From Promethearchaeota archaeon (GTDB lineage Archaea; Asgardarchaeota; Hermodarchaeia; Hermodarchaeales; Hermodarchaeaceae), in contig JBHLMG010000001.1 of the NCBI GenBank assembly GCA_048938385.1, positions 224,001 through 288,000 on the forward strand: a DNA stretch of 64,000 nucleotides. Direction: 5' to 3'. A program made the position numbers and the translations under genes. The first letter of the stretch is position 1; every line of letters begins with the position of its first letter. The notes beneath the pieces were generated by a model. That model was not told the origin of the DNA and did not search any database. It saw only the letters and a list, made by a program, of their open reading frames with translations. Shown here in pieces: positions 4,715-18,946 of the stretch.

Positions 4715-5485
4715 TTACACTTGATAGGCCTGTTCTAAATGCAAAAATTTCAGTGCATTGTTAGTTGTTGTAGTAGCAACTACCTCGGTCGTTGTTCCTT
4801 TGAGTTCTGCAATTTTTGTAGCAGCGTGTGGAAGGTTGGATGGCTCATTTGTTTGCCCAGGGACAGGCGATAAATAGGGCGCGTCAGTTTCTAAGAGCAT
4901 ATTCGCTAAAGGCATTGCAGTTGCAATATTCTGCATTCGTTTCCGCGTAACTACGCTTGTGGGAACACTCATGAAGAACCTTTCATCTGCTGCTTGTTGT
5001 ACAAATTCAGGCGCATTAAAACAATGTAACTGGACATCATACATTTTTTCATCCTGTAATACTTGCATTGCATCTGCTTCTGCTTCACGAGAGTGTACAA
5101 CAAGCGGTAGATTCAATTCATCAGCGAGATGAATGAATTCAATAAACGCGGTTTTCTGGTATTCTCGTTCTTTTGAATCCTTAACCCAGTAATAATCTAA
5201 CCCCACTTCCCCAATTGCTACAATTTCTTCTGAATGGTCATAGATGGCCTGAACAGTAAGCTTCACCATCCGGGGTGTTGCTCTGGGAGGGTGAAGCCCA
5301 AAGGTGGGCCAGATGAACCCAGGAAATCGTTTTTGCAAAGCCAACGCTTTTGGAAAGAACTTAGGCTCGATGGCACTTATAACGACTCCAATAACACCTG
5401 CCTGTTTCGCCCGACGAATGACAGCTTCGGCTTTGGGATAAAGTCGAGGCATCTCTAAATGTGAGTGGGTATCAAAAAACTCCAA
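4715..5485 (-). CDS. tatD: TatD family hydrolase
   Basis: DTHSHL, GLHP, IGEVGLDY, HSRE, HCF, ETDAPY; start trimmed to the TTG just before FFDTHSH. Confidence 0.9.
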   Translation of the reverse strand: MEFFDTHSHLEMPRLYPKAEAVIRRAKQAGVIGVVISAIEPKFFPKALALQKRFPGFIWPTFGLHPPRATPRMVKLTVQAIYDHSEEIVAIGEVGLDYYWVKDSKEREYQKTAFIEFIHLADELNLPLVVHSREAEADAMQVLQDEKMYDVQLHCFNAPEFVQQAADERFFMSVPTSVVTRKRMQNIATAMPLANMLLETDAPYLSPVPGQTNEPSNLPHAATKIAELKGTTTEVVATTTTNNALKFLHLEQAYQV

Positions 5486-5577
5486 GATGTCATCCCTTCT
5501 TGATAGCGTCTCCTCGAAAGCTTCAAAAGGTTTTACCTCTACCGCTTCCACATAATTAGGAATTCAGGCTGATCAAA

Positions 5578-6597
5578 ATGGATCTCCGTGGCAAAGACAT
5601 GATAACCACTCAAGAATGGACTCGTGAAGAACTGGACGCGGTCTTAGACTTTTCCAAAGAACTGAAGCGGAAAACCAAGGCAGGAAAATCTCCACACCTG
5701 CTTTCTGACAAGACCTTCTTCATGTTGTTTTACAACACGAGTACACGGACGCGAGCTAGTTTTGAAGCCGCATTAACTGAACTGGGAGGACATGCTCAAT
5801 TTCTAGAACCTGGTGCAATGCGGCTAGGTGAAGGTGAAAGTGTTAAAGATACAGCCTGCACTCTTGCCAGGTATGGGCATGGCATAGGGATACGAATACT
5901 GGAAAAGGCAGTAGGTTATGTCTACGGTCGGGGAAACCAGGTTCTGAGGGACTATGCCAAATGGTCTGATATTCCCATTATCAACATGGCTGATGATAAG
6001 TTCCATCCTTGTCAATCTCTCACGGATCTCATGACTGTGCAAGAGAAGTTCCCAAAAATACAAGGAAAGAAATTCCTTTTTTCTTGGGCCTATAGCCGCC
6101 ATTCCCGTTCTTGGTGTAGCGTTCAGAGCGCTGTGCTCATCGCAGCCCGATTTGGGATGGATGTTACCCTTGCAAACCCCCCTGGTTTTGAACTGGACTC
6201 TGAGATCATGAATTGGTGCCGTCAAAACGCAAACGAATCTGGGGGTTCCTTTAATATCACCCACGATCTCAAGGAAGCCTATTCTGGCGCTCATGTAGTA
6301 TATCCCCGTTCATGGATGAGCTCAGAGTGTGCAGCTATGGGCATCGACAAATGGGGTGAAGACAGAGAAGCCCAGCTTCATGAACAGTACAGGGACTGGG
6401 TTTGCACATCGGAGCTAATGGATCTCGCTAACAAAGACGCAATCTTCATGCACTGTTTACCAGTCTTTCGTGGTGAAGAAGCTACAGATGAAGTTGTAGA
6501 CGGTTCCCAGAGCGTCATCTTCGACCAAGCCGAAAACCGTCTACATTTACAAAAAGGCTTACTGTCCCTGGTTATGGGTGATAAGAATCTCCTCTAA
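5578..6597 (+). CDS. Carbamoyltransferase, knotted YgeW-like (paralog 1)
   Basis: STRT, HPCQ, HCLP; SWAYS loop and YPRSW instead of the OTCase GDG.N/DxxxSMG motifs. Confidence 0.85.
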   Translation: MDLRGKDMITTQEWTREELDAVLDFSKELKRKTKAGKSPHLLSDKTFFMLFYNTSTRTRASFEAALTELGGHAQFLEPGAMRLGEGESVKDTACTLARYGHGIGIRILEKAVGYVYGRGNQVLRDYAKWSDIPIINMADDKFHPCQSLTDLMTVQEKFPKIQGKKFLFSWAYSRHSRSWCSVQSAVLIAARFGMDVTLANPPGFELDSEIMNWCRQNANESGGSFNITHDLKEAYSGAHVVYPRSWMSSECAAMGIDKWGEDREAQLHEQYRDWVCTSELMDLANKDAIFMHCLPVFRGEEATDEVVDGSQSVIFDQAENRLHLQKGLLSLVMGDKNLL

Positions 6598-6640
6598 ACC
6601 TCGGAATGCCACAGATAATGATGTCTTGATTAGTTAGAGG

Positions 6641-7714
6641 CTAGCGAGGCACTCCCATAATGGCGGCCATTATAGCTTTCTGAGCGTGTAGCCGATTCTC
6701 TGCCTCATCAAAGGCGATGCTCCATTTACCATCTAGCACTTCATCAGTGACTTCAAAGCCCCGATCTGCAGGTAAGCAATGCATATACTTGACTCCCTTT
6801 GAGCCCAATTCCATTTTCGCTGCGTCAGTTATCCAGTGCTTATTGGCATCAAAGAGCTTTTGACAGCCTTCCCAATCCTCTGCAGGCGCGATGGGTGGAA
6901 TGTGGTGTTTACTGGTCCAGCATTTAGGATATACGAAATGAGCACCTGTAAAGGCTTCTTCCATGTCATTCGTTATCTCAAAGGACCCCCCATACTCGGC
7001 GACATTTTTCTCGCACATCTCTAGGATTTTGGGGTCCAGTTCAAATCCTTTTGGATGGGCAAGAATGGTGTCCATCCCCCATTTAGTTCCCATCAACACG
7101 CCACTTTGGGGGACAGCTAGGGGTTTCTGCGTGCTTGGGCTATATGCCCAACTCATCACGAATTTCTTCCCCGTTACCTTTGGGGTGTGTTCTTGTATGG
7201 CCTGCATGTCGGCCATAGCTTGACAGGGATGGTAGACATCGTCTTCCATATTGATAATGGGAATATCAGACCATTTGGCAAATTCACGAAGTATCCGGTG
7301 GCCTCGTCCGTATATCCATTTGGCGTGGGATCCGTAGATGCGGATGGCAATGGCATCACCCATTCTAGCAAGGACTCGAGCCACATCTGAGATGCGTTCG
7401 CTCGAATAAGCTTCTTCGTCATCAGGTAAGGCTGGACGGTAGACATCTTGAGGCGAAAGGAAGTGTGCATGTCCGCCCATTTGGGTCATGCCCGCTTCAA
7501 AGGAGTTCCGTGTGCGTAGGGACCGATTGAAGAAGATCATAAACAGTGTTTGTCGATGTAAGTAATCGTGAGGTTTTCGCGCTTTTTGCAGCCTCTTTAA
7601 CTCGATAGCGGCATCGATGAGGGTTTGCAGCTCCTCCTGTGACCATTCTTGGATAGTCAACCAGTCACGACCATGGAATTTACCAACAATTTCAGTACCC
7701 ATACTTGGAGTCAC
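6641..7714 (-). CDS. Carbamoyltransferase, knotted YgeW-like (paralog 2)
   Basis: SLRT, HPCQ, HCLPAD; SWAYSPSTQKPLAVPQ closely resembles the YgeW loop WAYSPSYGKPLSVPQ; YPKCW. Confidence 0.88.
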   Translation of the reverse strand: MTPSMGTEIVGKFHGRDWLTIQEWSQEELQTLIDAAIELKRLQKARKPHDYLHRQTLFMIFFNRSLRTRNSFEAGMTQMGGHAHFLSPQDVYRPALPDDEEAYSSERISDVARVLARMGDAIAIRIYGSHAKWIYGRGHRILREFAKWSDIPIINMEDDVYHPCQAMADMQAIQEHTPKVTGKKFVMSWAYSPSTQKPLAVPQSGVLMGTKWGMDTILAHPKGFELDPKILEMCEKNVAEYGGSFEITNDMEEAFTGAHFVYPKCWTSKHHIPPIAPAEDWEGCQKLFDANKHWITDAAKMELGSKGVKYMHCLPADRGFEVTDEVLDGKWSIAFDEAENRLHAQKAIMAAIMGVPR

Positions 7715-7747
7715 CTCAATTCTTTGCGAAAAGAATAGGCAGCGGTA

Positions 7748-9139
7748 TTAATCTTTTTGCCATCGGCTTTGAATGTTGACTTGAGCTCGTTCGACTAATT
7801 TTTGTCCCCGTTCTTGTGCGGTCTCGATGATCTTTGCTTCATCCATAGTTAGTAATTTTCCCTCGTGAACCAGGATTTGTCCGTTAACAATAGTAGTATA
7901 GACGTTGGAACCATTTGCCGCATAGATTATGTTGCTGACAGGATTGTAGGTTGGTGCAAGATTCAACTGTTTTGGATCTACGAGGACAAGATCCGCTTTC
8001 TTTCCCTCTTCGATACTCCCTATGGCACGGTCAAGTCCCAAGGCCTTCGCGCCGTTGATAGTTGCCATTTCTAATACGGTTTCTGCAGGCATTGTCAACG
8101 GATTAAGGGTGCGAGCCTTATGAATGATGGCTGCTAGAAACATTTCACGAAACATATCATAGGCATTATTACTTGGTCCTCCATCACAACCTAAGCACAC
8201 ATTGATTCCTGCTTGCAGCATTTCTGGAATTGGTGCAATTCCCGAAGCTAGTTTTGAATTACTGGCGGGGCAATGGCACATGTGAGTTCCTGTGTTGACA
8301 TAAATCGGAAATTCCTGTGGACTGATCCAGACGCCATGTACTAAAACAACATTTTGACCCATCATTCCGACATCTAGGGCAAATTCTGCTGGAAGCTGAT
8401 TAAATTTGGATTTGGTATATTCCACATCCTCTTGCACTTCCCCCAGGTGCATAGTAATCCGCATGTGCCGGCTCCTCGCGAGGTCTGCCACACGCCGGTA
8501 CAGCTCGGGGCTTACTGCACCGGGTGTCCGTGCACCCCACCATATAAACACTCGTCCGTCTCCCGCGCCTTGCCACTTCTGATGCATTTCAAGTGTTTCT
8601 GAAATACACTCCTCTGGGTTTTCAATCATGCCTTCATACATAATAGACTCTTCATCAGCATAACCTGTCCAGTCCATGAAGAGTTTCGAAAGACATCCAC
8701 GAATTCCACTATTTTCGACCACCTGGGCGATGCCATCAAGACCATAACGTTTGTGGATCATGCTTTCAAGGAAGCTAGTAGTGCCTGATTTCAGCATTTC
8801 AGCGATGCAGAGTTGCGCACTAACCCGCCCATCTTCGGGTGTAAAGTTGCCTTGAAGCACCCAGACATAGTCACGAAGCCAAGGGATGAGATCAACATCA
8901 TCCGCAGTACCTCGAATGAGAGCTTGAGCTAGATGCACATGACAATCAATTAAGCCCGGAATGAGGATTTTTCCCTCTGCATGGATGCGTGTGTCGCCAG
9001 TGAATTTTTGCTTAATTTCTGCGGTTTTCCCAATGGCAATAATTCGTTGATCTTCTACAACAACAGCGCCATTTGAGATGATTCGGCGTTTGGGATCAAC
9101 CGTAATAATAGTAGCCCCGTCAATAATTAAATCGGCCAT
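7748..9139 (-). CDS. Amidohydrolase, MTA/SAH-deaminase / TRZ-ATZ family
   Basis: PGLIDCHVH, HLGE, HGV, HCPASNSKLASG, LGCDG, GSIEEGKKAD. Confidence 0.88.
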   Translation of the reverse strand: MADLIIDGATIITVDPKRRIISNGAVVVEDQRIIAIGKTAEIKQKFTGDTRIHAEGKILIPGLIDCHVHLAQALIRGTADDVDLIPWLRDYVWVLQGNFTPEDGRVSAQLCIAEMLKSGTTSFLESMIHKRYGLDGIAQVVENSGIRGCLSKLFMDWTGYADEESIMYEGMIENPEECISETLEMHQKWQGAGDGRVFIWWGARTPGAVSPELYRRVADLARSRHMRITMHLGEVQEDVEYTKSKFNQLPAEFALDVGMMGQNVVLVHGVWISPQEFPIYVNTGTHMCHCPASNSKLASGIAPIPEMLQAGINVCLGCDGGPSNNAYDMFREMFLAAIIHKARTLNPLTMPAETVLEMATINGAKALGLDRAIGSIEEGKKADLVLVDPKQLNLAPTYNPVSNIIYAANGSNVYTTIVNGQILVHEGKLLTMDEAKIIETAQERGQKLVERAQVNIQSRWQKD

Positions 9140-9261
9140 GGGTATCAACCTAGGGGCTAACTCTACTTTTTCCTATTAAGGGTTAGGTAGCCTTGAGGTT
9201 TTGTTAAACCAGCAATTTTTTTGAGTAGTTGAGCAATCCACCTAAGTGGAGTACATTGCTA

Positions 9262-9543
9262 ATGCAGGTTGTTGTTCGAACAATCGGACCATTTACTGAA
9301 ACTTTAGGCTTTCACCAGATTACTCTAGCCCTGAAAGGACATACTGTACAAGACCTCCTACAACAACTCTGTACAGAACGCGGAAAGGGATTCTGTAATG
9401 CAGTTTTTGATGAAAAGGGAAAACTCCGTCGTTATATCAAACTCCTTGTGAATGGGCGCGGGTTGCATGTGTTACAGGGATTGGATACACCATTATCCGA
9501 TGGGGATGTCATCGCAATATTTCCACCCGTCGCCGGAGGCTAA
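9262..9543 (+). CDS. MoaD/ThiS/SAMP ubiquitin-like sulfur carrier
   Basis: C-terminal IFPPVAGG; VNGR motif. Confidence 0.9.
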   Translation: MQVVVRTIGPFTETLGFHQITLALKGHTVQDLLQQLCTERGKGFCNAVFDEKGKLRRYIKLLVNGRGLHVLQGLDTPLSDGDVIAIFPPVAGG

Positions 9544-10871
9544 AGGGTGATTCCTAATTTCTCCCAGAGGACTGGAACAACACGATTCAAGGCTTTTTCA
9601 ACCATTTCTGGCTTAATTGTCACTACTTGATGATTATTCACAATATGTTTGCCATTTACAAAGACATGCTCAACATCATGAGCGGTGCATCCATAGACGA
9701 TGTATCCATAGACTCCGGCGGGTAATATTGGGGTGACTCGTGGCTTGGGGTGAAGGATGACGATATCGGCGCGCTTCCCTGGTTCGATGGATCCGAGTTG
9801 GTCGCTTAATCCATAAATCTGTGCACCGTTTATTGTTGCCATTTCAATGACTTGTTGTGGTGTTGTCACTCGAGGATCGAGGTGGTGGACTTTGTGAATG
9901 AGGTACGCCGTACGAATGTTTTCGATCGCGTCGAAGATAAACCCGTCATTGCCTAAACAGACCGGAATCCCAAGCTCGTACATCTCTCGGACTGGGGCGA
10001 CACCGACAGCATTGTTCATGTTGCTCATTGGATTATGCGCCACTGTGGCCCCACTACCCCGAATTAATTCGAGTTCATCGCGGTTGATGTGAACACAGTG
10101 GGCTAGCACTACATCAGAACCGAGTACTCCGAGGTCAAACAGGCGTTCAATAGTGCGTTTATCGTATCGTTCGATGTTATGATAGACATCGATAAGCCCT
10201 TCACTAGTATGGATAGTAATCGGTGCGTGCAGTTCATCTGCTTGGGTACGAGTTTTTTGAATTAATTCATCACTGAGCGTAAAGGAGGCATGCAGACTAT
10301 ACATGCCATTTAGCAGCTCATCTGGGTTTTGCTCCAGTTTCTTTAGGAACCTAATGTTCTCTTTTAGTCCCCGTTCGCCTTCCTCCTTGGAGTTGCGTTC
10401 TGTCGCTTCAAAACCAAGGATGCCACGAATACCGACCTCCCTTACTCCCTTTGCTATTGCGTCTAATACCCCTTCTATTGAGTTAGGTCCTGAATATGTA
10501 TCGGCAAAACATGTTGTGCCACTTTTAACAAACTCGTAACATGAAGCTAAGGCGCTAGCATTAGCATCTTCATTTACGAAAGCGGTATCAACTTTCCACC
10601 AAATCCGGTCTAATATTTGTAAAAAATCCGTAGTGGGTTTAATATCGAGGGGTGCCCCTCGGAGCATTATTCCATAGAGATGCGTGTGCCCACAAATGAA
10701 CCCTGGCAAAACTATGCGGCCACGGCCATCAATTTCGTGATCGGCTCTATCCTTGATGTTTTTCCCGATTTTAGCGATCATCGAATCTTCAACAAGAACA
10801 TCGGTATTTTCTAGCACTTGCCGGTGTGCATTCATCGTTACGACGAGTGCGTTTCGAATCAGAATTTTCAT
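9540..10871 (-). CDS. ssnA: SsnA-like amidohydrolase
   Basis: PGFICGHTHLY, DFLQILDRIWWKVD, FEATERN..GLKENIRF, HASFT, HNPMSNMNNAVG all match SsnA-specific segments as I recall them. Confidence 0.8.
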   Translation of the reverse strand: MKILIRNALVVTMNAHRQVLENTDVLVEDSMIAKIGKNIKDRADHEIDGRGRIVLPGFICGHTHLYGIMLRGAPLDIKPTTDFLQILDRIWWKVDTAFVNEDANASALASCYEFVKSGTTCFADTYSGPNSIEGVLDAIAKGVREVGIRGILGFEATERNSKEEGERGLKENIRFLKKLEQNPDELLNGMYSLHASFTLSDELIQKTRTQADELHAPITIHTSEGLIDVYHNIERYDKRTIERLFDLGVLGSDVVLAHCVHINRDELELIRGSGATVAHNPMSNMNNAVGVAPVREMYELGIPVCLGNDGFIFDAIENIRTAYLIHKVHHLDPRVTTPQQVIEMATINGAQIYGLSDQLGSIEPGKRADIVILHPKPRVTPILPAGVYGYIVYGCTAHDVEHVFVNGKHIVNNHQVVTIKPEMVEKALNRVVPVLWEKLGITL

Positions 10872-10977
10872 GATAGCCCAACTCAAAGGATTAGAAAGAG
10901 GCTGAATTTCAGAAACTCTAGATAGTTGAGCAAGCCTTTAAGCCTTCCAATCCTCTTTTTTCTGGGCGTGTGTTTTC

Positions 10978-11475
10978 ATGAACAAATCACCCAACAAAGT
11001 TCTGGTCGTTGATCCAGAGAAATGCACAGGTTGTGGCATCTGTTCTCTCGTGTGTTCCTTTCGGCATACTCAAGAATACAATCCCGCACGAGCGCTACTT
11101 ACGATTATTCGAGATGAAAAGCACGGAATCAACATACCTGTCATTTGTCAGCATTGCGATGTACCGCTGTGTATGGAAAGCTGCCCGGCAGATGCAATAT
11201 TTCGTGATACCGAAACTAATGCTGTCTGTATCAACCAAACAAATTGTATTGGTTGCCATCAATGTCTAGTTGCCTGTCCATTTGGAGGAATCCATATCGA
11301 TCCTGCAGATGGACGCACAGTGAAATGCGACCTTTGTGAAGGTTATGCTATGTGCGCCCAATTTTGTCCCAGAGGAGCGTTGCTATATTTAAAGCCGGAC
11401 GAATTGACCGCTCGGCTTCGAGAGAAGGGGATTAAACGCGCTGCGGAATATCTTCATGTAATTACGAGGAAGTGA
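10978..11475 (+). CDS. 4x[4Fe-4S] electron-transfer subunit (DmsB/HycB-like) for AOR
   Basis: CTGCGICSLVC, CQHC..CMESCP, CIGCHQCLVACP, KCDLC. Confidence 0.9.
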   Translation: MNKSPNKVLVVDPEKCTGCGICSLVCSFRHTQEYNPARALLTIIRDEKHGINIPVICQHCDVPLCMESCPADAIFRDTETNAVCINQTNCIGCHQCLVACPFGGIHIDPADGRTVKCDLCEGYAMCAQFCPRGALLYLKPDELTARLREKGIKRAAEYLHVITRK

Positions 11476-11479
11476 AAAA

Positions 11480-13417
11480 ATGAGTGAAAATCACCCATAT
11501 TATGGTTATGCCGGTCGTATTGCGGAAGTCGATTTAACGAAATCCGAGGTGAAAATCACGCCCTTAGACCGAGATTTTGCCCGAAAATATCTCGGCGGAA
11601 CTGGGTTTGCGGCTCGGATCTTGTGGGATCGAGTGAAACCATCGACTGAGCCCCTCGATCCTGATAATCCCTTATTTTTCGGCATCGGACCAGTTACAGG
11701 CGCTTTCTTTTCACCCTCTGGGCGTTTTATGGTTGCCTATAAATCTCCTCTCACAGGGTTTTGGGGTGAAGCCCACTGTGGAGGCCATTGGGGACCCCAA
11801 CTCAAGTATGCTGGCTTTGATGCACTAGTTATTCAAGGAAAGGCATCATCACCAGTCTATCTCATGGTCCAGGACAAAGCTGTTTACATTCGTGATGCCG
11901 ACCACTTGTGGGGGCGTGACACCATGGAAACCACCGATACGATACGCGAGCTACACGGAGATAATGACATTGAGGTTGCAGCTATCGGAATAGGCGGAGA
12001 GAACCTCGTTCGGTATGCAGCCATAATCGGCTCTTATTATCGAGCTGCAGGTCGGGGAGGTGCGGGCGCGGTCATGGGCAGCAAGAATCTGAAAGCCGTG
12101 GCTGTCCGTGGGCTGGGAGGAGTCAAGGTGGCAAATCCCGGGAAGTTCATGGCTGCGGCTCGGAAAGCTTACAACCAGATGACCACTGGAAAATGGGGCG
12201 AGATGAATGAGGAATCTCTGGGAAAATATGGGACTACAAACCTCGTGACAGCAATTGGTGAAATCGGACGGCTTCCAACAAAGAATCACACGACAGGTGT
12301 GTTCGAAGATGCTGATGCTATTGGACCTGAAACAATTCGCCAAAAATACCGGACAAGCCGCGAATCGTGTTTTGGTTGTGCGTTACAATGCAAATTCACA
12401 TCTGAGGTTAAATCAGGTCCTTATCAAGTAATTACAGGAGGTCCTGAGTATGAAACACTCATGGCCTTCGGTAGTAATTGCCTGAATAGCAACATTGAAT
12501 CAATTCTGTACGCAAACCAGTTATGCAATAGGTATGGTCTAGACACAATCAGCACTGGCTGTACTATCGCCTTTCTTTTTGAAGCAGCCGAAAACGGCAT
12601 CATTACGCCAAATGAAGTAGGTGGACTTGACCTCTCTTGGGGTAATGATAAAACCATTATTGCTCTCGTCGAAAAAATTGCACACCGAAAAGGGATTGGA
12701 GACCTACTCGCTGAGGGATCATTACGCGTGGCACAAAAAATAGGTAAGGGTGCCGAACGGTTTGCTATCCATGTAAAAGGTATGGAGGCTTCTGGGCAGG
12801 ATCCACGGCCACAACAAAGCGTTGGCCTTACATACGCGACCAATGTACGCGGTGCCGATCATTTAAGGAGCCTCAGCTGCTATGAGGAGTTGGGTTTTCC
12901 GGATGTCGCAATAGAACGATTCGGAGAGGACCATGCTACTGAAGTCATGGATTTGCATACTACTAGCTTCAAAGGACATCTCATCAAGGATCAAGAGGAC
13001 CTGTACGTACTCGTTGATAGCATCATTCTTTGCAAGTACGGGACAATGTGGCCTCCTGTCTATTACTTTGATATCATGGCAGAAATGCTCAAACCCCTAA
13101 CTGGTTTTGACGAATTCAGTGAGGTACAACGACTTCGACTGGTTGCGGAGCGCATTAGTAATCTTAGGCGTTGTTTTAATGTCCGCGAAGGGGCAACACG
13201 CAAGAACGAACAGCTCCATCCCCGGTTTACCGAGGAGCCAATGCCTGAAGGGCCTGGCAAAGGGCGTGTCTGTAATCTAGATCCCATGCTTGACGAATAC
13301 TATGAAGTGAGAAACTGGACAAAAGAAGGACTCCCAAGGCGTTCCGAATTAAAACGGCTTGGTTTAGAAGATGTTGCTGATGAATTGGCAAAAACAGGAA
13401 AGGTGGTAGACGAATAA
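11480..13417 (+). CDS. Aldehyde:ferredoxin oxidoreductase (AOR/WOR) family tungstoenzyme 1
   Basis: GYAG, KSPLTG, GAVMGSKNLKA, CFGCALQC, GPEYET, GLDTIS, RGADH. Confidence 0.92.
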   Translation: MSENHPYYGYAGRIAEVDLTKSEVKITPLDRDFARKYLGGTGFAARILWDRVKPSTEPLDPDNPLFFGIGPVTGAFFSPSGRFMVAYKSPLTGFWGEAHCGGHWGPQLKYAGFDALVIQGKASSPVYLMVQDKAVYIRDADHLWGRDTMETTDTIRELHGDNDIEVAAIGIGGENLVRYAAIIGSYYRAAGRGGAGAVMGSKNLKAVAVRGLGGVKVANPGKFMAAARKAYNQMTTGKWGEMNEESLGKYGTTNLVTAIGEIGRLPTKNHTTGVFEDADAIGPETIRQKYRTSRESCFGCALQCKFTSEVKSGPYQVITGGPEYETLMAFGSNCLNSNIESILYANQLCNRYGLDTISTGCTIAFLFEAAENGIITPNEVGGLDLSWGNDKTIIALVEKIAHRKGIGDLLAEGSLRVAQKIGKGAERFAIHVKGMEASGQDPRPQQSVGLTYATNVRGADHLRSLSCYEELGFPDVAIERFGEDHATEVMDLHTTSFKGHLIKDQEDLYVLVDSIILCKYGTMWPPVYYFDIMAEMLKPLTGFDEFSEVQRLRLVAERISNLRRCFNVREGATRKNEQLHPRFTEEPMPEGPGKGRVCNLDPMLDEYYEVRNWTKEGLPRRSELKRLGLEDVADELAKTGKVVDE

Positions 13418-14604
13418 TGGCAGTGGATTTAAGCGTAAATATTGCGGGGATTCCTCTTCGTAATCCCGTTCTTACGGCTGCTGGACCCACAAGTCGTGAT
13501 GGTGAAACACTCGTCAAAGCCGCTAGAGGTGGGGTAGGCGGTTTAGTGGCGAAAACCATTAGCGTGAAACCTGCCGCAGTTCCCCGACCTAACATGCAGA
13601 CACTCGACAGAGGACAAAGCCAATGGTTGCTTGCGACAGCAATGCAACATCAAGTAGTACACCTTGAACGTATCAAGGTTCGTGGTGCTTACGGGTTACT
13701 AAATCATGAATTATGGAGCGATAAGCATTATCAAAAATGGCTCGATCACGAATATCCTCGTGCAAAGGAAACCGGCCTATCGCTCATCGCCTCGGTCGGA
13801 TATACACCCGAAGAACTAGCAAAGCTTGCCCCCCTCGTTCAAAAGGCTGGTGTCGATGGAATTGAGTTCAGCACCCATTATCTCGAAACGGACCCCAAAG
13901 TCTTTAATGAAGTAGCGAAAACGCTGCAAGAGGCGGTAGATATTCCGATTTTTGCTAAGATGAGTCCCCATGTGAAGGATTTAACCATCTTCACAAAAGC
14001 GGTGGATCGGTATGTGGATGGTTTTGTCGCCATCAATACACTTGGACCGTGTCTTCACATTGACATAGAAACAGGTCGTCCTTTACTTGGTGGACCGGGT
14101 GGGGTTGGATGGCTTTCAGGACCGGCTATAAAACCACTTGCAGTTCGGTGCGTTGCTGACATCGCTCAGGGCACATCCAAACCAGTTGTCGCTGTAGGTG
14201 GTGTTAGCACTGGAGCTGATGCCATTGAGTTCTTTATGGTTGGAGCTTCAGCAGTTCAAGTTTGTACTGCTGCCATCCTCGAAGGGCATTCAGTTTACGG
14301 GCGTATTGCTAGAGAGATCGCAGCATTCCTTGAGTTGCATGATAAAGCATCGCCTGAAGATATTCGAGGACAAGCGTTGAAGCATTTACCAAGAGACACA
14401 CTGCGTGTTGAAAGCCTTCCCCCAACAGTGAATGAAGAATCCTGCTCTGGCTGTGGGTTATGCACTACATCCTGCACATATTCAGCAATTTCTGTCAATC
14501 CAGAAACGACAAAGGCTCAAGTAGACTCTAACCTGTGTTATGGGTGTGGTGTGTGTGTAAGTATCTGTCCTCACAGAGCCCTTTCTTTTAACCCATCAAA
14601 ATAA
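13417..14604 (+). CDS. DHODH/PreA-fold FMN oxidoreductase with C-terminal 2x[4Fe-4S]
   Basis: NPVLTAAGP, KT, AKMSP, AINT, GWLSGPAIKP, GGV, VQVCT, two CxxCxxCxxxC; active-site loop EFSTHY rather than NxSCP. Confidence 0.85.
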   Translation: MAVDLSVNIAGIPLRNPVLTAAGPTSRDGETLVKAARGGVGGLVAKTISVKPAAVPRPNMQTLDRGQSQWLLATAMQHQVVHLERIKVRGAYGLLNHELWSDKHYQKWLDHEYPRAKETGLSLIASVGYTPEELAKLAPLVQKAGVDGIEFSTHYLETDPKVFNEVAKTLQEAVDIPIFAKMSPHVKDLTIFTKAVDRYVDGFVAINTLGPCLHIDIETGRPLLGGPGGVGWLSGPAIKPLAVRCVADIAQGTSKPVVAVGGVSTGADAIEFFMVGASAVQVCTAAILEGHSVYGRIAREIAAFLELHDKASPEDIRGQALKHLPRDTLRVESLPPTVNEESCSGCGLCTTSCTYSAISVNPETTKAQVDSNLCYGCGVCVSICPHRALSFNPSK

Positions 14605-14619
14605 GGTGAACTTGACGCG

Positions 14620-14907
14620 ATGTTAAAAAAACCAAAAGTTACCGTTCGTATGTTCACGAGCCTCCGAGCCTTAACAGGAACCAGAGAAACGGAATTGGAA
14701 GCATCTGATGTGCAAGAGGTCATTGATATTCTAGGTAACCGTTTTGGAGAGAAGTTTAACCAAATGCTACTTGAACCCGATGGGTCGTTAAAAAGATACT
14801 TCCATGTTCTCGTTAACGGACGGCACATTCGGCTTCAACAAGGGCTACAAACATGCCTCTCTGATGGTGATGTTGTAGCGATTTTTCCTCCGATTGGAGG
14901 AGGTTAG
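14620..14907 (+). CDS. MoaD/ThiS/SAMP ubiquitin-like sulfur carrier
   Basis: C-terminal IFPPIGGG; VNGR; last gene of the AOR1 operon. Confidence 0.9.
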   Translation: MLKKPKVTVRMFTSLRALTGTRETELEASDVQEVIDILGNRFGEKFNQMLLEPDGSLKRYFHVLVNGRHIRLQQGLQTCLSDGDVVAIFPPIGGG

Positions 14908-14920
14908 CTAAACAGCTTGC

Positions 14921-15691
14921 TTACACTTTCTTTGCTTTGCGTATTGCTGTAATTGTTTCTCTTAGGGCTTTACCTTTGTCCCGTAAGATATTTCGTTCAA
15001 TGACTGTTCCCTGAACGATAATATTCGCTCCTGCTTTAGATACAGCTGCAGCTTGTGAAGGCGTGTTGATTCCTCCCCCCACAGCGAGAGGGGTGTCTAA
15101 TTTACTAGCTACCGCTTTTACCATTGGCAGGGGGACTGCGTTTTCAACACCTGATCCTGCTTCGAGGTAAATTAATTGAAATCCCATGTATTGGGCTGCG
15201 AGTGCGTATCCAAGGGCGATTTCGGGCTTGTCTCTAGGAATCAGACGTGCATCACCGACATATCCTGCAGTACCTCCTGGCTGAACAATAAGGTAAGCCA
15301 TTGATATCGGTTCTAAGTTAAACCCCTTGATGTACCGAGCTGCCAAGGTTTGAGCATCAATCATCCAATAGGTTGTTCGTGAGTTCAACAAACTCATGAA
15401 AAAAACAGCGTCTGCATTTCGAGACAGACCTGATACATTTCCTGGAAAGAGAATAACGGGGATATCTACTTGTTCTTTGATTCTTGTGAGAGTTTCATCA
15501 ACAATCCCTAAAGCTGTAGACCCTCCAACCATTATACCATTTGTACCAGCGGCTTCAGCAAAATGAGCGATTTGAGCCGCTTCTGTGGAGGATTGTTTTG
15601 CAGAGTCAGGATCAATAAGGGTGAGATGAACCACTCTCTCTTTTTGAAGAGTATTAAGAATCGTTTTCCAGGTAGGACCCATAGCAGTCAT
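14921..15691 (-). CDS. Geranylgeranylglyceryl phosphate synthase (group II)
   Basis: HLTLIDPD, MVGGS, LFPG, SLLNS, YLEAGSG, VGGGI. Confidence 0.93.
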   Translation of the reverse strand: MTAMGPTWKTILNTLQKERVVHLTLIDPDSAKQSSTEAAQIAHFAEAAGTNGIMVGGSTALGIVDETLTRIKEQVDIPVILFPGNVSGLSRNADAVFFMSLLNSRTTYWMIDAQTLAARYIKGFNLEPISMAYLIVQPGGTAGYVGDARLIPRDKPEIALGYALAAQYMGFQLIYLEAGSGVENAVPLPMVKAVASKLDTPLAVGGGINTPSQAAAVSKAGANIIVQGTVIERNILRDKGKALRETITAIRKAKKV

Positions 15692-15737
15692 TTTTCCACC
15701 CTAATTTGATGCATGAGGTCTTGGACTTTTAAGTATG

Positions 15738-16415
15738 CTACCGTTGAGCCAAGATTTTAGCAATTCCTGGGAAAACCTGTGCAGTTCGCTTATCCCAGTC
15801 CACAGTGACCATTTTGCGCAATTCGAACCAGCGAAGGTAGCTTTGTACTTTCATTTCTGTTGTTCTGAGATTTTTCGCCAAATCAATAAAGGATATTTTT
15901 CCACTCGTCCCGAAGGCTCGTAATATGGGACTCCATTCATAGGTGATGAGCATCACCATGGCTGGAAGTAACTTCTCCAGGTTATACTTGGATTTACAGC
16001 TAATTGGAATGATTGGAACTCCGACCATGAAACTCAAATCATGGCGAATCCGTTCAGGACTTCGAGCCGCACTCAAATCTTGCTTGTTAGCTACTACGAT
16101 ACAGGGAACATTCGGAAGTAAGTCGCTGATTTCAGTCCAAATGTATCGAGCTTCCCCGTCTCCCTCCGGATTACTTGCATCAACCACAAATAGAATTCCA
16201 TCTGCCCCCTCCGAAATAATACGGCGTAAGACTTTGAACCTTACTAGCCCGGGCGTTCCGAATAGTCGAATAGGAACCTGGTGAACCTCTGCCACACCGT
16301 GATCAAGACCAACAGTTGTGCCATTTGCTTGAATATTAATGACCTTACCCTTAGCTAGGCGTTCGATTAATGTGCTTTTTCCAGAAACATGAGGCCCTGT
16401 CACCAGCACTTTCAC
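15738..16415 (-). CDS. Small GTPase (MglA/ATP_bind_1-like) with C-terminal winged helix
   Basis: GPHVSGKST, TTVGLDHG, FGTPG, NKQD; HTH-like tail. Confidence 0.8.
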   Translation of the reverse strand: MKVLVTGPHVSGKSTLIERLAKGKVINIQANGTTVGLDHGVAEVHQVPIRLFGTPGLVRFKVLRRIISEGADGILFVVDASNPEGDGEARYIWTEISDLLPNVPCIVVANKQDLSAARSPERIRHDLSFMVGVPIIPISCKSKYNLEKLLPAMVMLITYEWSPILRAFGTSGKISFIDLAKNLRTTEMKVQSYLRWFELRKMVTVDWDKRTAQVFPGIAKILAQR

Positions 16416-16526
16416 AGTAATTCAGCTCCGTAAGTAGGGCAGGTGCTTGCTCCTAATTATCCCCGGATAAGACTCATTCTTGTAAGACTTCATTTAAACC
16501 TTGCTTATCAAGAGTTGTCACAATTT

Positions 16527-18452
16527 TCATTCCGGCAGTTCGATCCCCTGAGTAGTAAGATCGCGCACTACATCCTTAAGTCCCACACGCTCAAGGGTTT
16601 GCTTAGTTGGCAGCCCATCTCTTAACCGCCAACCTCGCTGTTCATAGTATTCATCCAGCATTTGGTCAAGTTCAACTACTTGGCCCTTTGACGGTCCCTC
16701 TGGGGCGGGTGTGTGGGTTAGTCGTCGTGGAAGCGCATCATCTTTTCGGCGAATCCCTTCTCGAACATTGAATCCGCGATTTAAGTTAACGATTCGCTCG
16801 CCAATTAATCGAAACTTGGCTTCTGTAAATTTTATTCCGACAGTCACATCAAAGGTCGCTACTACATCCTCGTAAAAGAGGACTGGGGGGATTAATGTTC
16901 CATACTTGCACACACCTAAAGATTCGACGACTGCACAAAAATCCTCGTTCTCCTTTACCATGACACCTTTATACTTCGGATTCAATCGGTCACCGATTTC
17001 AGGTAAATACGCTCTCCCATAACGAATACCTATCTCCTCATCAAACCCAACTTCATCCAGGACCGGGAAGGCATACAGATGGTCTGCACCCCGCGCTGCC
17101 GTCGCCGACGCTAAACCCATCGACTTTTGTGCACGAGGTTCTTGCCCTGCAATTTCTTGTTTCTTGCAGTGCATCACGAATTTCTCAGTTCCTCGACCAA
17201 TTTTTTGCGCGGCACGATAACTTCCTTCAGCCAGGATATCGCCGAACCCTTCACGCTTGGCAATCATGTGAATTAGTTTGATTATGGTTTTGTGGTTTCC
17301 CCAGCTCAAATCAATCCCACCAGTATCTTCAGCAGTAATTAATCCTTCATCCCAGGCTTCCATCGCCCAACTTATCGTAGCACCAGTTGAAATTGTGTCG
17401 AGTCCGTATAGATTCGAGATGTGATGTCCATACAATATTGATTCTAGGTTATCATTACCACAACGACTCCCTAGAGCTGCTTGGGATTCATATTCAGGGC
17501 TTCCACCACAATAGGCGTATGGACCAGTTTTGACGAGGGTGTATCTTCCACAGCGTTGTAAACAAGCGTAATCTGCCCTAGGCTTCACAAGGTACTGGTT
17601 CTTAATAGCTTCACCACTAATCTTTTGGTATTGAGCAAAAACTCCTGATCGCATGTTGTAACTAGGAAGTCGACCAATTTCTTGCATCAGTTCAACAAGA
17701 TTCGTCGTTCCGTACTTAGCCCGGCTCGCTGTAAAAGGACTATCCAACATTTTTTGGTGTAATTTTTCTATTACCTCAAGGTATCTGTCAGGTTTGGCTA
17801 TTGAAATATCTTGACTCCCACGGACAGCTACGGCTTTCAGATTCTTGCTCCCCATGACCGCCCCCAAGCCCGTTCTTGCTGCGGCACGATCATAATCGTT
17901 AATTATGGCTGCATAGCGAACGAGGTTCTCCCCAGCTTGACCAATGCATGAGACTCGAAGACCCGGATCACCTTGGTTTTCCTTAATTATCTCCTCTGTT
18001 TCGTTTGTATCTCGACCCCACAACTCCGTGGCATCTAACAGACGGGCAACACCGTTGTCAATGAATAAATACACAGGACTCCTTGCACGCCCTGTAACGA
18101 CGATAGCATCAAATCCAGCGAATTTTAATTCAGGTCCCCAATGCCCTGCTGAATGGGCTTCTCCAAAGATGCCTGTTAACGGGGATTTTGCGGCTACCAC
18201 ATAACGTGAAGCTTGGGGCCAAAGGGTTCCAGTAAAAGGTCCTGTTGCCCAAATCAGGACATTTTCGGGAGTGAGGGGATCTATTGAGGGTCCTACCTTG
18301 TCGTATAAAATTCTAGAAGCGAATCCTTGACCACCCAAGTAGGTAAGGGCGAACTCTCGGTCCAGTGGAATGGGCTTACAATGACCCTTTGTCATATCAA
18401 CATGTAATAGTTGTCCAGCATATCCACCAAGTTTTGTTTTCGACTTCGTCAT
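16527..18452 (-). CDS. AOR/WOR family tungstoenzyme 2
   Basis: GYAG, KSPLTG, GAVMGSKNLKA, PEYES, GLDTIS, RGADH; cluster motif DYACLQRC. Confidence 0.92.
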   Translation of the reverse strand: MTKSKTKLGGYAGQLLHVDMTKGHCKPIPLDREFALTYLGGQGFASRILYDKVGPSIDPLTPENVLIWATGPFTGTLWPQASRYVVAAKSPLTGIFGEAHSAGHWGPELKFAGFDAIVVTGRARSPVYLFIDNGVARLLDATELWGRDTNETEEIIKENQGDPGLRVSCIGQAGENLVRYAAIINDYDRAAARTGLGAVMGSKNLKAVAVRGSQDISIAKPDRYLEVIEKLHQKMLDSPFTASRAKYGTTNLVELMQEIGRLPSYNMRSGVFAQYQKISGEAIKNQYLVKPRADYACLQRCGRYTLVKTGPYAYCGGSPEYESQAALGSRCGNDNLESILYGHHISNLYGLDTISTGATISWAMEAWDEGLITAEDTGGIDLSWGNHKTIIKLIHMIAKREGFGDILAEGSYRAAQKIGRGTEKFVMHCKKQEIAGQEPRAQKSMGLASATAARGADHLYAFPVLDEVGFDEEIGIRYGRAYLPEIGDRLNPKYKGVMVKENEDFCAVVESLGVCKYGTLIPPVLFYEDVVATFDVTVGIKFTEAKFRLIGERIVNLNRGFNVREGIRRKDDALPRRLTHTPAPEGPSKGQVVELDQMLDEYYEQRGWRLRDGLPTKQTLERVGLKDVVRDLTTQGIELPE

Positions 18453-18946
18453 TGTTCGCCCTCCAGAGTTTTTTCTTCAACTCGTAACTCATCTAGTGTA
18501 TCTTTACACTCAGCTCGAATTACATTTTGTTGCTTGAGGGCTGCTAACTCTTCCTCGGTAAGGATTCGAAGCGTATTCACAGGGCAATACTTTGTACAAA
18601 AACCACAGGTCACACATTTGATGGCTTTTTGACTATCAGGATGAAGGAAAATAGCCCCAAATGGGCATGCTTCAACACAACTGCCGCAACCTCGACACTT
18701 TTTCGAATTAACCATGACAATTCCTTGGCGATTACGGTAAAGCGCCTCCTCAGGGCAGGCTTCAATACACCATGCCTGGTCACAGTTACGACAAGCTACT
18801 ACAACATCTAACCCCGGATTAACGCGACGAACACGGTTCCGTGCTTTTTTAGGGTTGAGTGTTTTTTCCCAATGAAAACTGCAAATCGCTTCACATACGC
18901 GGCAGCCCACGCATACCAATGGATCTGCGTATAAGAACTTCCTCAA
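18449..18946 (-). CDS. 4x[4Fe-4S] subunit for AOR2
   Basis: CVGCRVCEAIC, CRNC..CIEACP, CRGCGSCVEACP; ATGA overlap with AOR2. Confidence 0.9.
   Translation of the reverse strand: MRKFLYADPLVCVGCRVCEAICSFHWEKTLNPKKARNRVRRVNPGLDVVVACRNCDQAWCIEACPEEALYRNRQGIVMVNSKKCRGCGSCVEACPFGAIFLHPDSQKAIKCVTCGFCTKYCPVNTLRILTEEELAALKQQNVIRAECKDTLDELRVEEKTLEGEQ

Follow-up and report, generated by a model that had tools for sequence, protein, structure and literature searches.

A 64,000-nucleotide stretch of a Promethearchaeota genome (Hermodarchaeaceae; GenBank assembly GCA_048938385.1, contig JBHLMG010000001.1, positions 224,001 to 288,000), hereafter the window, carries a cluster in which two members of the aldehyde ferredoxin oxidoreductase (AOR) family, each with a polyferredoxin (pFd), are encoded together with an SsnA-like cyclic amidohydrolase, a TRZ/ATZ-type deaminase, two carbamoyltransferases (CT1 and CT2) and a PreA-like flavoprotein of the dihydroorotate dehydrogenase (DHODH) fold. 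On balance, we take this cluster to encode the central part of an anaerobic pathway in archaea for the catabolism of a purine-type N-heterocycle, built on the logic of the bacterial reductive uric-acid pathway. Three observations carry this reading. The linkage of these genes is conserved across archaeal phyla and is not a matter of chance; AOR1 and AOR2 belong to a distinct AOR clade with an altered set of active-site residues; and AOR2-type genes and genes of the xanthine dehydrogenase (XDH) family have a complementary distribution among SsnA-like-positive Asgard genomes. The source is a metagenome-assembled genome (MAG) of 2.48 Mb in 51 contigs, 89.8% complete, in which the window is contig C23:224001-288000; close homologs (79-86% identity) come from Hermodarchaeota, Thorarchaeota and Promethearchaeota MAGs.

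The gene neighbourhoods of 80 loci seeded with SsnA-like homologs were mapped with the window proteins. The whole arrangement is syntenic in about 12 MAGs of Hermod/Thor type, which we counted as one lineage, and these partners turn up, in differing gene orders, in at least seven lineages of archaea. The Hecatella locus combines a ThrC-like enzyme, genuine PreT and PreA (a pair scoring 470 bits, above the cut-off), a carbamate kinase, a dihydropyrimidinase (476 bits), CT1, CT2, an SsnA-like protein, a polyferredoxin and an AOR2-type enzyme. Three pFd-AOR pairs accompany the SsnA-like protein, an amidohydrolase and a PreA-like protein in the Baldrarchaeota locus, and two Nitrososphaerota-type MAGs carry AOR2-pFd, the SsnA-like gene, and a block of ThrC-like, amidohydrolase, AOR3-pFd, PreA-like, AOR1-pFd and CT1 genes. 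The Desulfurococcales cluster consists of a hydantoinase (Hyd), adenine deaminase, the TRZ-type deaminase, CT1, CT2, the carbamate kinase ArcC, SsnA-like, PreA-like, CysK-like and ThrC-like proteins and an M20 enzyme. More than 25 loci of Hadarchaeota and Hodarchaeaceae pair a Hyd-like gene with SsnA-like and PreA-like genes, and Loki and Thor loci contain, besides the TRZ-type deaminase, the blocks pFd-AOR1-type-PreA-like and MoaD-Hyd-like-pFd-AOR2-type, with M24 and PfkB genes between them. Orthologs of AOR2 (62-66% identity) directly adjoin SsnA-like or Hyd-like genes in Hecatella, Baldrarchaeota, Nitrososphaerota-type, Bathyarchaeia, Loki/Thor and metagenome loci, and CT1-type orthologs lie within the clusters of five lineages other than that of the window.

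The same linkage was seen when the search was reversed. We seeded 80 metagenome loci with an AOR2-type alignment, took sequences of at least 55% identity as clade members and counted loci of at least 8 kb. Pathway partners (SsnA-like, Hyd-like, PreA-like, ThrC-like or CT) were present in 9 of 11 loci with clade AORs versus 1 of 36 loci with other AORs (Fisher p = 4e-7, for loci that are non-independent, three of them near-identical). A chance arrangement, in which a DadD/MtaD-type deaminase, arginine-type carbamoyltransferases and a threonine synthase happen to stand beside two ordinary AOR operons in one lineage, is highly improbable: the interspersed GGGP synthase, GTPase, GlmS and TatD genes, the score of CT2 just over an N-acetylornithine carbamoyltransferase (AOTCase) cut-off and that of the ThrC-like enzyme over a threonine synthase cut-off would suit it, and against it stand the recurrence of the partners in differing orders, their near-absence around AORs outside the clade, and the presence of separate argF-like, pyrB-like, PyrD and ThrC genes in the genome.

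A comparison with the cluster of Caldarchaeum (Aigarchaeota) suggests what the AORs may do. Three Caldarchaeum loci (L084, L087 and L095) encode adenine deaminase, the SsnA-like protein, XDH-type FAD, 2Fe-2S and Mo subunits, CT1, ArcC, and ThrC-like, CysK-like and CT2 proteins. The SsnA-like, CT1, CT2 and ThrC-like proteins are orthologous to those of the window (43-59% identity); the cluster differs in having the XDH-family molybdoenzyme, with no AOR or PreA-like gene within 10 kb. The XDH subunits were confirmed by Pfam, and their best NCBIfam models are those of xanthine dehydrogenase XdhA. XDH genes also lie about 7 kb from Hyd-like/SsnA-like genes in two Bathyarchaeia loci, and in none of the SsnA-seeded loci did AOR and XDH genes occur together.

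This pattern was examined further in an even sample of 151 Asgard species genomes, using thresholds of at least 48% identity for SsnA-like and at least 61% for AOR2-type proteins. SsnA-like genes were found in 48 genomes. An AOR2-type gene in the absence of an XDH-family gene is present in 39 of these, an XDH-family gene in the absence of AOR2-type in seven (in one of them directly beside the SsnA-like gene), neither in two and both in none. PreA-like genes occur in the four lineages with AOR2-type genes and in one XDH-bearing genome (G004). No XDH-family gene (PF02738) was found in the 89.8%-complete source genome or in 18 genomes of the same family; within that family, the sister genus has none of the three genes, and in family f14 all three are found in one of four genomes. 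AOR2-type and XDH genes exclude each other and occupy the same position beside the SsnA-like gene, a pattern to be expected of a functional replacement rather than of an added aldehyde step. The suggestion of an initial annotation of the window, made from its sequence, that AOR-family enzymes take over the XDH-family step is strengthened by both the Caldarchaeum cluster and the Asgard distribution, with the chemistry of the AORs being a prediction.

Eight AOR paralogs are encoded in the genome. AOR1, AOR2 and a paralog on contig C29, which has its own polyferredoxin, form one clade (support 99/98), and the other five fall outside it. The clade comprises three subclades, each with Asgard and Nitrososphaerota-type members, and the AOR1-type subclade is common to the window, Baldrarchaeota and Nitrososphaerota-type MAGs. 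Both window proteins are members of the AOR/WOR family by their AFOR_N and AFOR_C domains and four [4Fe-4S] cysteine ligands; when AOR1 is aligned to the Pyrococcus furiosus enzyme (PfAOR, 1aor; 443 bits, about 40% identity), Cys288, 291, 295 and 494 all align. The adjacent pFd1 and pFd2 each have four complete cysteine motifs for [4Fe-4S] clusters (16 cysteines each, all 16 of pFd1 being invariant among its orthologs), as in the small subunit of WOR Class II (WorLS), and both are the best matches of E. coli YgfS in the genome (35% identity). Four residues, Thr243, Glu313, Tyr427 and His448, are conserved in the aldehyde-oxidising members of the family (PMC13328260). This set is incomplete in AOR1 and AOR2: Thr243, Glu313 and His448 are retained, as seen in the pairwise alignment of AOR1 and in the signature columns of both proteins, and Tyr427 is altered. 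In AOR1, Tyr427 is replaced by Gln and Cys447 by Asp (PfAOR numbering). Of the 51 clade members, 48 have Gln at position 427, among them AOR1, AOR2 and the C29 paralog, and the complete signature T-E-Q-D-H likewise holds in 48, the other AORs of the data set being of the TEYCH or TEH type.

The two AOR modules resemble WOR Class II (WorL and WorS) and Class III (Aromatoleum aromaticum AorABC) in having a two-domain pterin subunit with one [4Fe-4S] cluster, a 4x[4Fe-4S] partner and accessory genes of the 'WorX' type (PMC13328260); as in Class III, a possible third redox subunit of AOR1 is encoded downstream. They differ in that this third subunit is an FMN protein of the DHODH fold with 2x[4Fe-4S] rather than the FAD/NAD protein WorN, in the Gln and Asp substitutions, and in their context of cyclic amidohydrolases and carbamoyltransferases. 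A recent classification of the family (2026) includes no class with a DHODH-fold subunit (PMC13328260).

The most serious alternative accepts that a purine or ureide is degraded and takes the AORs for conventional aldehyde:ferredoxin oxidoreductases, which would play a supporting role. They could act on an intermediate with an aldehyde group, such as a semialdehyde or the glyoxylate of a branch of ureidoglycolate type, or pass low-potential electrons by way of the polyferredoxin to the PreA-like reductase. It is the main rival because the catalytic Glu313 and His448 are preserved in AOR1; so are Thr243 and the Fe-S ligands, and the PDB entries closest to AOR1 and AOR2 are bona fide AORs (1aor and 9mqx, 443-473 bits), all of which weighs in its favour. 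The pFd1-AOR1-PreA-like operon also resembles that of AorABC, whose third subunit serves only as an exit for electrons. Among the activities characterised in the family, the only ones not directed at aldehydes are benzoyl-CoA reduction and sulfonate oxidation (PMC13328260). The substitution of Tyr427 throughout nearly the whole clade argues against a conventional aldehyde oxidoreductase, as does the mutual exclusion of AOR2-type and XDH genes beside SsnA-like genes, and the known bacterial pathway proceeds without a free aldehyde intermediate (10.1101/2025.05.19.654654). We consider an aldehyde-oxidising or electron-feeding role possible, if rather unlikely. The AORs of the window fall outside the aldehyde-type paralogs, and their linkage to SsnA-like and CT genes is conserved in several phyla, which is the opposite of an outcome that the initial annotation had named as fatal to its proposal.

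The PreA-like protein, encoded in the AOR1 operon, may reduce the heterocycle and could also be a third subunit of AOR1. The order pFd-AOR1-PreA-like is kept in Asgard and Nitrososphaerota-type loci; the gene lies 2.5 kb from the SsnA-like gene in the window and directly adjoins it in more than 25 Hadarchaeota and other loci. It scores 183.9 bits with the PreA model NF006183 (cut-off 335) and has the loop GIEFSTHY in place of SCPH/SCPQ. The catalytic cysteine is missing from this loop, a feature conserved in the family, and Glu150, Ser152, His154 and Tyr155 are invariant in 17 orthologs. Its best 120 homologs are without exception archaeal or unnamed. A genuine PyrD is encoded separately, on C28. 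Prediction of a complex between pFd1 and the PreA-like protein (alignments A3 and A4) gave a score of 0.00, which is evidence neither way. In C. difficile, YgfK is replaced by UacX, an FMN-only, PydA-like enzyme with ferredoxin as its proposed donor, and in Chloroflexota another reductase, an F420 enzyme, takes its place (10.1101/2025.05.19.654654). The proposal that the PreA-fold enzyme stands in for YgfK would fit the C. difficile variant. Direct similarity to the N-terminal part of YgfK is weak, consisting of collinear BLAST pieces (best E 0.028) and a short 'ST' loop common to both in a MAFFT alignment, which is a lead rather than a result.

Among all curated families, the SsnA models are the best matches of the SsnA-like amidohydrolase, with scores below their cut-offs (NF005540, 381.7 versus 444; TIGR03314, 355.9 versus 455.5). 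Aligned along its full length, the protein has 28% identity to E. coli SsnA (E 4e-58), and it is the best hit when E. coli SsnA is searched against the genome (E 3e-52). We regard it as the candidate ring-opening enzyme. The deaminase matches best the model for 5'-deoxyadenosine deaminase (423 bits, cut-off 522), forms a separate clade in the amidohydrolase tree and is probably a purine base or nucleoside deaminase; in loci of Loki/Thor, Desulfurococcales and Nitrososphaeria, its orthologs (46-56% identity) adjoin AOR1-type/PreA-like or SsnA-like genes.

A second alternative concerns the substrate, which could be a cyclic amide or ureide other than a purine, such as a pyrimidine, a hydantoin or a compound resembling dihydroorotate or allantoin, handled by a modified reductive pyrimidine pathway in which the CTs phosphorolyse N-carbamoyl products. 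The genuine PreT/PreA and dihydropyrimidinase of the Hecatella cluster point that way, as does the amidohydrolase beside pFd-AOR2 in Loki/Thor, whose scores with the allantoinase, dihydropyrimidinase and dihydroorotase models are nearly equal (348, 324 and 321 bits), and the SsnA-like protein belongs to a sister clade of true SsnA. We nevertheless favour purines over pyrimidines because adenine deaminase and XDH-like genes are present in sister clusters, adenine deaminase in both Caldarchaeum and Desulfurococcales and a three-subunit XDH-like enzyme in Caldarchaeum. SsnA models outrank all other curated amidohydrolase families, and a purine, with its two ureido groups, would match two distinct CTs better than a pyrimidine with just one. 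A non-purine substrate seems quite unlikely on this evidence.

CT1 and CT2 are a sister family of YgeW and are not its equivalogs. They share with YgeW (3q98) and N-acetylornithine carbamoyltransferase (3kzc) the carbamoyl-phosphate motifs STRTR, HPxQ and HCLP, a WAY(S/H)P-type loop and YP(K/R)xW. In CT1 these read STRTR, HPxQ, HCLP, a WAYS... loop and YPRSW. Alignment shows that neither protein has the ornithine motif DxxxSMG, and that both have in common with YgeW the WAYS(P)...VPQ loop and YP(K/R)xW. CT2 comes closest, its stretch WAYSPS..KPLAVPQS / YPKCW resembling WAYSPSYGKPLSVPQG / YPKSW of E. coli YgeW. They are shorter than YgeW (339 and 357 versus 396 residues), constitute two conserved paralog types with different substrate loops, CT2 being a paralog of CT1 with a conserved loop insertion, and have no arginine-biosynthesis context. 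No arg genes lie near them, and their linkage is instead to SsnA-like, ArcC and ThrC-like genes; separate argF-like (C5) and pyrB-like (C28) genes are present in the genome. CT1 and CT2 are the best hits of E. coli YgeW in the genome, ahead of the argF-like protein, with identities of 34%, 32% and 25%, respectively. With the YgeW models TIGR03316 and NF005538 (cut-offs 500 and 453), CT1 scores 154.9 and 167.2 bits and CT2 142.7 and 148.6 bits, and both score 141-151 bits against the 3q98 structure; with the AOTCase model NF003384 (cut-off 288), CT2 just passes (292.8) and CT1 stays below (282.4). The claim of SsnA and YgeW homologs holds for the family resemblance, with SsnA as the best model and YgeW-type motifs in the CTs, and has to be narrowed in that both are sister families scoring under the equivalog cut-offs.

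Two pathway genes that the initial annotation had reported missing from the window were located elsewhere in the genome. A hydantoinase/dihydropyrimidinase at C12:12451-13806 (TIGR02033, 496.5 bits, cut-off 393; 38% identity to HyuA) lies 2.7 kb from an M20 deacylase gene, and a carbamate kinase at C37:43379-44305 (TIGR00746, 377 bits, cut-off 358; 47% identity to YqeA) is divergent from an adjoining gene for a Ser/Thr-dehydratase-like pyridoxal phosphate (PLP) enzyme. The latter was considered as a YgeX analog; it is only 25% identical to YgeX and is not an ortholog of the CysK-like enzyme found in the clusters of other lineages. An adenine deaminase homolog is encoded on C43. Homologs of hyuA and arcC were thereby recovered above model cut-offs, and ygeX and xdh were searched for in the genome and not found. 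CarB, the large subunit of carbamoyl-phosphate synthetase, was not found in the genome, in which pyrB-like and argF-like genes are present, and carbamate kinase or CT1/CT2 may be the only carbamoyl-phosphate sources of the cell. Carbamate kinase therefore need not serve ATP recovery, and the idea that the CTs recover carbamoyl phosphate for ATP is weakened for this organism.

The ThrC-like PLP enzyme is highly conserved and scores above the cut-off of a threonine synthase model; another ThrC is encoded on C29. Since its orthologs (43-56% identity) lie within the SsnA/CT/ArcC/AOR clusters of several independent lineages (Hecatella, Nitrososphaerota-type MAGs, Desulfurococcales and Caldarchaeum), we consider it a recurrent cluster member. 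Mentioned initially as a weak candidate lyase, it is a candidate for the terminal lyase or a replacement enzyme of the pathway. A CysK/SbnA-like PLP enzyme is encoded inside clusters of Caldarchaeum, Desulfurococcales and one Bathyarchaeota MAG (L084:18813-19800, L081:12849-13890 and L052:2808-3875); the source genome has its own ortholog, 65% identical, beside a corrinoid protein gene (G000:C22:97398-98441).

The bacterial pathway starts with the reduction of urate to 2,8-dioxopurine by XdhD. Its pyrimidine ring is then reduced and opened by YgfK (or UacX) together with SsnA, and the hydantoin by HyuA; the two ureido groups are taken off by YgeW/YqeA and YgeY, and YgeX turns diaminopropionate into pyruvate (10.1101/2025.05.19.654654; 10.1101/2025.04.24.650524). 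The archaeal clusters resemble the corresponding gene clusters (E. coli ygeW-ygeX-ygeY-hyuA-yqeA...ygfK-ssnA-ygfM-xdhD and the C. difficile variant with UacX and UacY) in pairing an SsnA-type amidohydrolase with a putative FMN/Fe-S reductase of the DHODH/DPD fold, in having a hydantoinase, carbamate kinase and one or more knotted-type carbamoyltransferases, in the proximity of a purine deaminase and a PLP enzyme of fold type II, and in placing a pterin-cofactor oxidoreductase beside SsnA. They differ in having AOR and polyferredoxins for the XDH family, a Cys-less PreA-like protein that stands alone and is encoded with AOR1, two CTs and no YgeY, a ThrC-like (in some lineages CysK-like) enzyme for YgeX, SsnA-like and CT proteins of sister families under the equivalog cut-offs, and archaeal hosts. 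Across the archaeal clusters, oxygen transfer would fall to AOR-clade enzymes or XDH and ring reduction to PreA-like or PreTA proteins, and the two CTs would take the place of YgeW and YgeY.

Transferred to the window, this scheme would begin with the TRZ-type deaminase, which would feed amino-purines into oxo-purines. AOR1, AOR2 and the third clade member, with their polyferredoxins, would then add or remove ring oxygen, the task of the XDH family in bacteria and Caldarchaeum, and ring reduction, in bacteria the task of YgfK or UacX, would fall to the Cys-less PreA-like protein; in E. coli, activity of YgfK could be detected solely in coupling with SsnA. Opening of the two rings would be due to the SsnA-like amidohydrolase and the C12 hydantoinase, and the two CTs would phosphorolyse the two ureido groups to carbamoyl phosphate, to be used by the C37 carbamate kinase for ATP or directly in biosynthesis. 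The ThrC-like enzyme would dispose of the remaining C3 amino acid. We infer the substrate, the order of these steps and the action of the AORs on the heterocycle itself. Between urate (C6=O) and 2,8-dioxopurine (C6-H), this carbon would move from the carboxyl to the aldehyde level, a change in the same redox class as the acid/aldehyde couple of AOR. A bolder version, unlikely as it stands, would make the AOR1-, AOR2- and AOR3-type enzymes position-specific purine hydroxylases or dehydroxylases that are wired through polyferredoxins to the Cys-less DHODH-fold reductase, giving a redox-balanced route from an oxopurine such as hypoxanthine to a ring-reduced dioxopurine without NAD(P)H or XDH; the electrons of two hydroxylations would pay for one dehydroxylation and one ring reduction.

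Several findings weigh against a purine-degrading system built on these AORs. The complementary pattern comprises about four AOR versus three XDH lineages, with related genomes being non-independent; in many Hadarchaeota and Bathyarchaeia loci the SsnA-like gene is accompanied by PreA-like or Hyd-like genes, but neither AOR nor XDH lies within 10 kb; and in family f6 the SsnA-like gene and the AOR cluster are on different contigs. A small tree places E. coli SsnA together with a second paralog from Hadarchaeota, and the clade of the window protein is their sister (support 0.986), neither nested within true SsnA nor equivalog to it. Because Hadarchaeota carry both SsnA types side by side, the two may differ in substrate. 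CT1 and CT2 score best on AOTCase and ornithine carbamoyltransferase (OTCase) models and structures (230-290 bits, versus 143-167 for YgeW models), and an anabolic role is possible for carbamate kinase. In this genome its gene and that of the hydantoinase are on other contigs, unlinked to the cluster, and orthologs of YgeX and YgeY are absent from it (TIGR01747, 44 versus 274 bits; TIGR03526, 113 versus 321). The purine/urate interpretation of the initial annotation is partly supported by comparative genomics, which points to a purine as the probable substrate; urate or 2,8-dioxopurine as the substrate gained no supporting result.

Gene calls in the window (Table 1) were based on the open reading frame (ORF) listing and on Pfam and NCBIfam profile scans of the window proteins, which recovered in place every gene that the initial annotation had listed. 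The likely transcription units are TRZ-CT2, with CT2 likely in one operon with the deaminase gene upstream; CT1; SsnA-like; pFd1-AOR1-PreA-like-MoaD2; and pFd2-AOR2. The start codon ATG of the PreA-like gene overlaps the AOR1 stop, and pFd2 overlaps the AOR2 start. The divergent pairs SsnA-like/pFd1 and TRZ/MoaD1 are separated by 91 and 80 bp, respectively. GGGP synthase and the small GTPase are two unrelated genes inside the span 5578-18946, and the ThrC-like gene sits outside it.

Table 1. Genes of the cluster and its surroundings, in window coordinates
Feature	Position	Strand	Domains and profile scores
ThrC-like PLP enzyme (423 aa, N-terminal Zn-ribbon)	1524-2795	+	PALP domain; PRK08197 336.8 bits
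GlmS	2860-4686	+	
TatD	4715-5551	-	
Carbamoyltransferase CT1 (339 aa)	5578-6597	+	OTCace_N + OTCace
Carbamoyltransferase CT2 (357 aa)	6641-7714	-	OTCace_N + OTCace; NF003384 292.8 bits
TRZ/ATZ-type aminohydrolase (deaminase)	7748-9148	-	Amidohydro_1
MoaD/ThiS-like 1	9229-9543	+	TIGR01687 65.5 bits
SsnA-like cyclic amidohydrolase (448 aa)	9540-10886	-	NF005540 381.7 bits
Polyferredoxin pFd1 (WorS type, 4x[4Fe-4S])	10978-11475	+	four Cys motifs
AOR1, pterin-binding large subunit	11480-13417	+	AFOR_N + AFOR_C
PreA/DHODH-fold FMN protein, C-terminal 2x[4Fe-4S]	13417-14604	+	DHO_dh + Fer4
MoaD/ThiS-like 2	14620-14907	+	TIGR01687 77.5 bits
GGGP synthase	14921-15691	-	
Small GTPase	15738-16415	-	
AOR2, large subunit	16527-18452	-	AFOR_N + AFOR_C
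Polyferredoxin pFd2 (WorS type, 4x[4Fe-4S])	18449-18946	-	four Cys motifs; Fer4 families
HAD / CTP-transferase fusion	19072-20352	+	

The two MoaD-like proteins both exceed the TIGR01687 cut-off of 49.5 and end in GG. ThiS-like 'WorX' genes found beside WOR genes are cofactor accessories (PMC13328260), and the MoaD-like genes are ordinary AOR-operon accessories of this type, for which no special pathway role is needed. The two carriers noted initially are present, in this capacity rather than as carriers of the pathway. In metagenome loci and those of Loki/Thor, the Hyd-like-pFd-AOR2 operon is preceded by a gene of MoaD2 type. The true start of MoaD-like 1 is probably downstream of the TTG at 9229, since family matches begin at residue 15-20, and its 3' end overlaps that of the SsnA-like gene on the opposite strand. 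The tungstate transporter WtpA (TIGR03730) was not found in the genome in a search that did not cover TupA and ModA.

The 11-mer TTGCTCAACTA occurs in both divergent intergenic regions (window positions 9226 and 10923) and seven times in the genome, versus about 1.2 expected. It was considered as a shared regulator motif and rejected as a chance occurrence because it is not kept in the 12 syntenic relatives and its other genomic copies lie within ORFs. No RNA run is listed for window positions 5578-14907; only sediment and mangrove DNA runs contain the stretch.

Additional observations were made on related genes. One further AOR paralog of the source genome is followed by a GltD/PreT-like flavoprotein gene (G000:C33:29160-32506), whose product is 34% identical to the middle part of E. 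coli YgfK and to YgfT; this AOR-flavoprotein architecture resembles the NAD-linked WOR of Class III. AOR homologs with one in-frame stop codon each were seen in several related Asgard genomes, TAA in G088, G064, G047, G070, G028 and G129 and TAG in G145, G108 and G130, which could be due to recoding, a special residue or assembly error. Hadarchaeota locus L058:9992-15013 (also L057, L072 and L075) contains two adjoining, convergent pairs of amidohydrolase and DHODH-fold genes: the first consists of an SsnA-like and a Cys-less PreA-like protein, the second of an amidohydrolase that groups with E. coli SsnA (support 0.998) and a protein of the genuine PreA type with an SCPQ loop. In Loki/Thor clusters, genes of an M24 peptidase (creatinase/prolidase family) and a PfkB-family kinase lie between the two AOR modules, and in L197 a gene of the ATC_hydrolase family follows the AOR2-type gene (L197:11108-13235, L198:11088-13236 and L124:1776-2690). 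In the window, the gene at 19072-20352, 3.4 kb from that of GGGP synthase, encodes a fusion of a membrane domain of the CTP_transf_1 type with a soluble HAD phosphatase domain and is outside the cluster.

In the AOR/WOR family, 5 of 92 clades have a defined physiological role, and nearly all known activities are on aldehydes (PMC13328260). The 2026 classification does not mention purine, amidohydrolase, dihydroorotate, carbamoyl, hydantoin or Asgard (PMC13328260), and the SsnA survey by the authors of the bacterial pathway was confined to bacteria (10.1101/2025.05.19.654654). We found no paper joining 'aldehyde ferredoxin oxidoreductase' with 'SsnA', and none combining archaea, purine degradation, tungsten and amidohydrolase. 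New here are a clade of AORs with an altered active site, the operon that joins it to a Cys-less reductase, and a distribution complementary to that of XDH.

These results give a widespread archaeal AOR clade a testable context, purine/ureide catabolism, together with candidate substrates. The predicted activity on the purine ring would be new for the AOR family, and these enzymes, if the prediction is true, would be its first members acting on N-heterocycles. The distribution points to non-orthologous replacement of the molybdenum-dependent XDH family by the (typically tungsten) AOR family. The bacterial reductive urate pathway would extend to archaea, including Asgard, Bathyarchaeia, Hadarchaeota and Aigarchaeota, and the two archaeal CTs could yield two carbamoyl phosphates per purine. 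For the sediment Asgard archaea themselves, the cluster suggests that nucleobase fermentation is part of their lifestyle.

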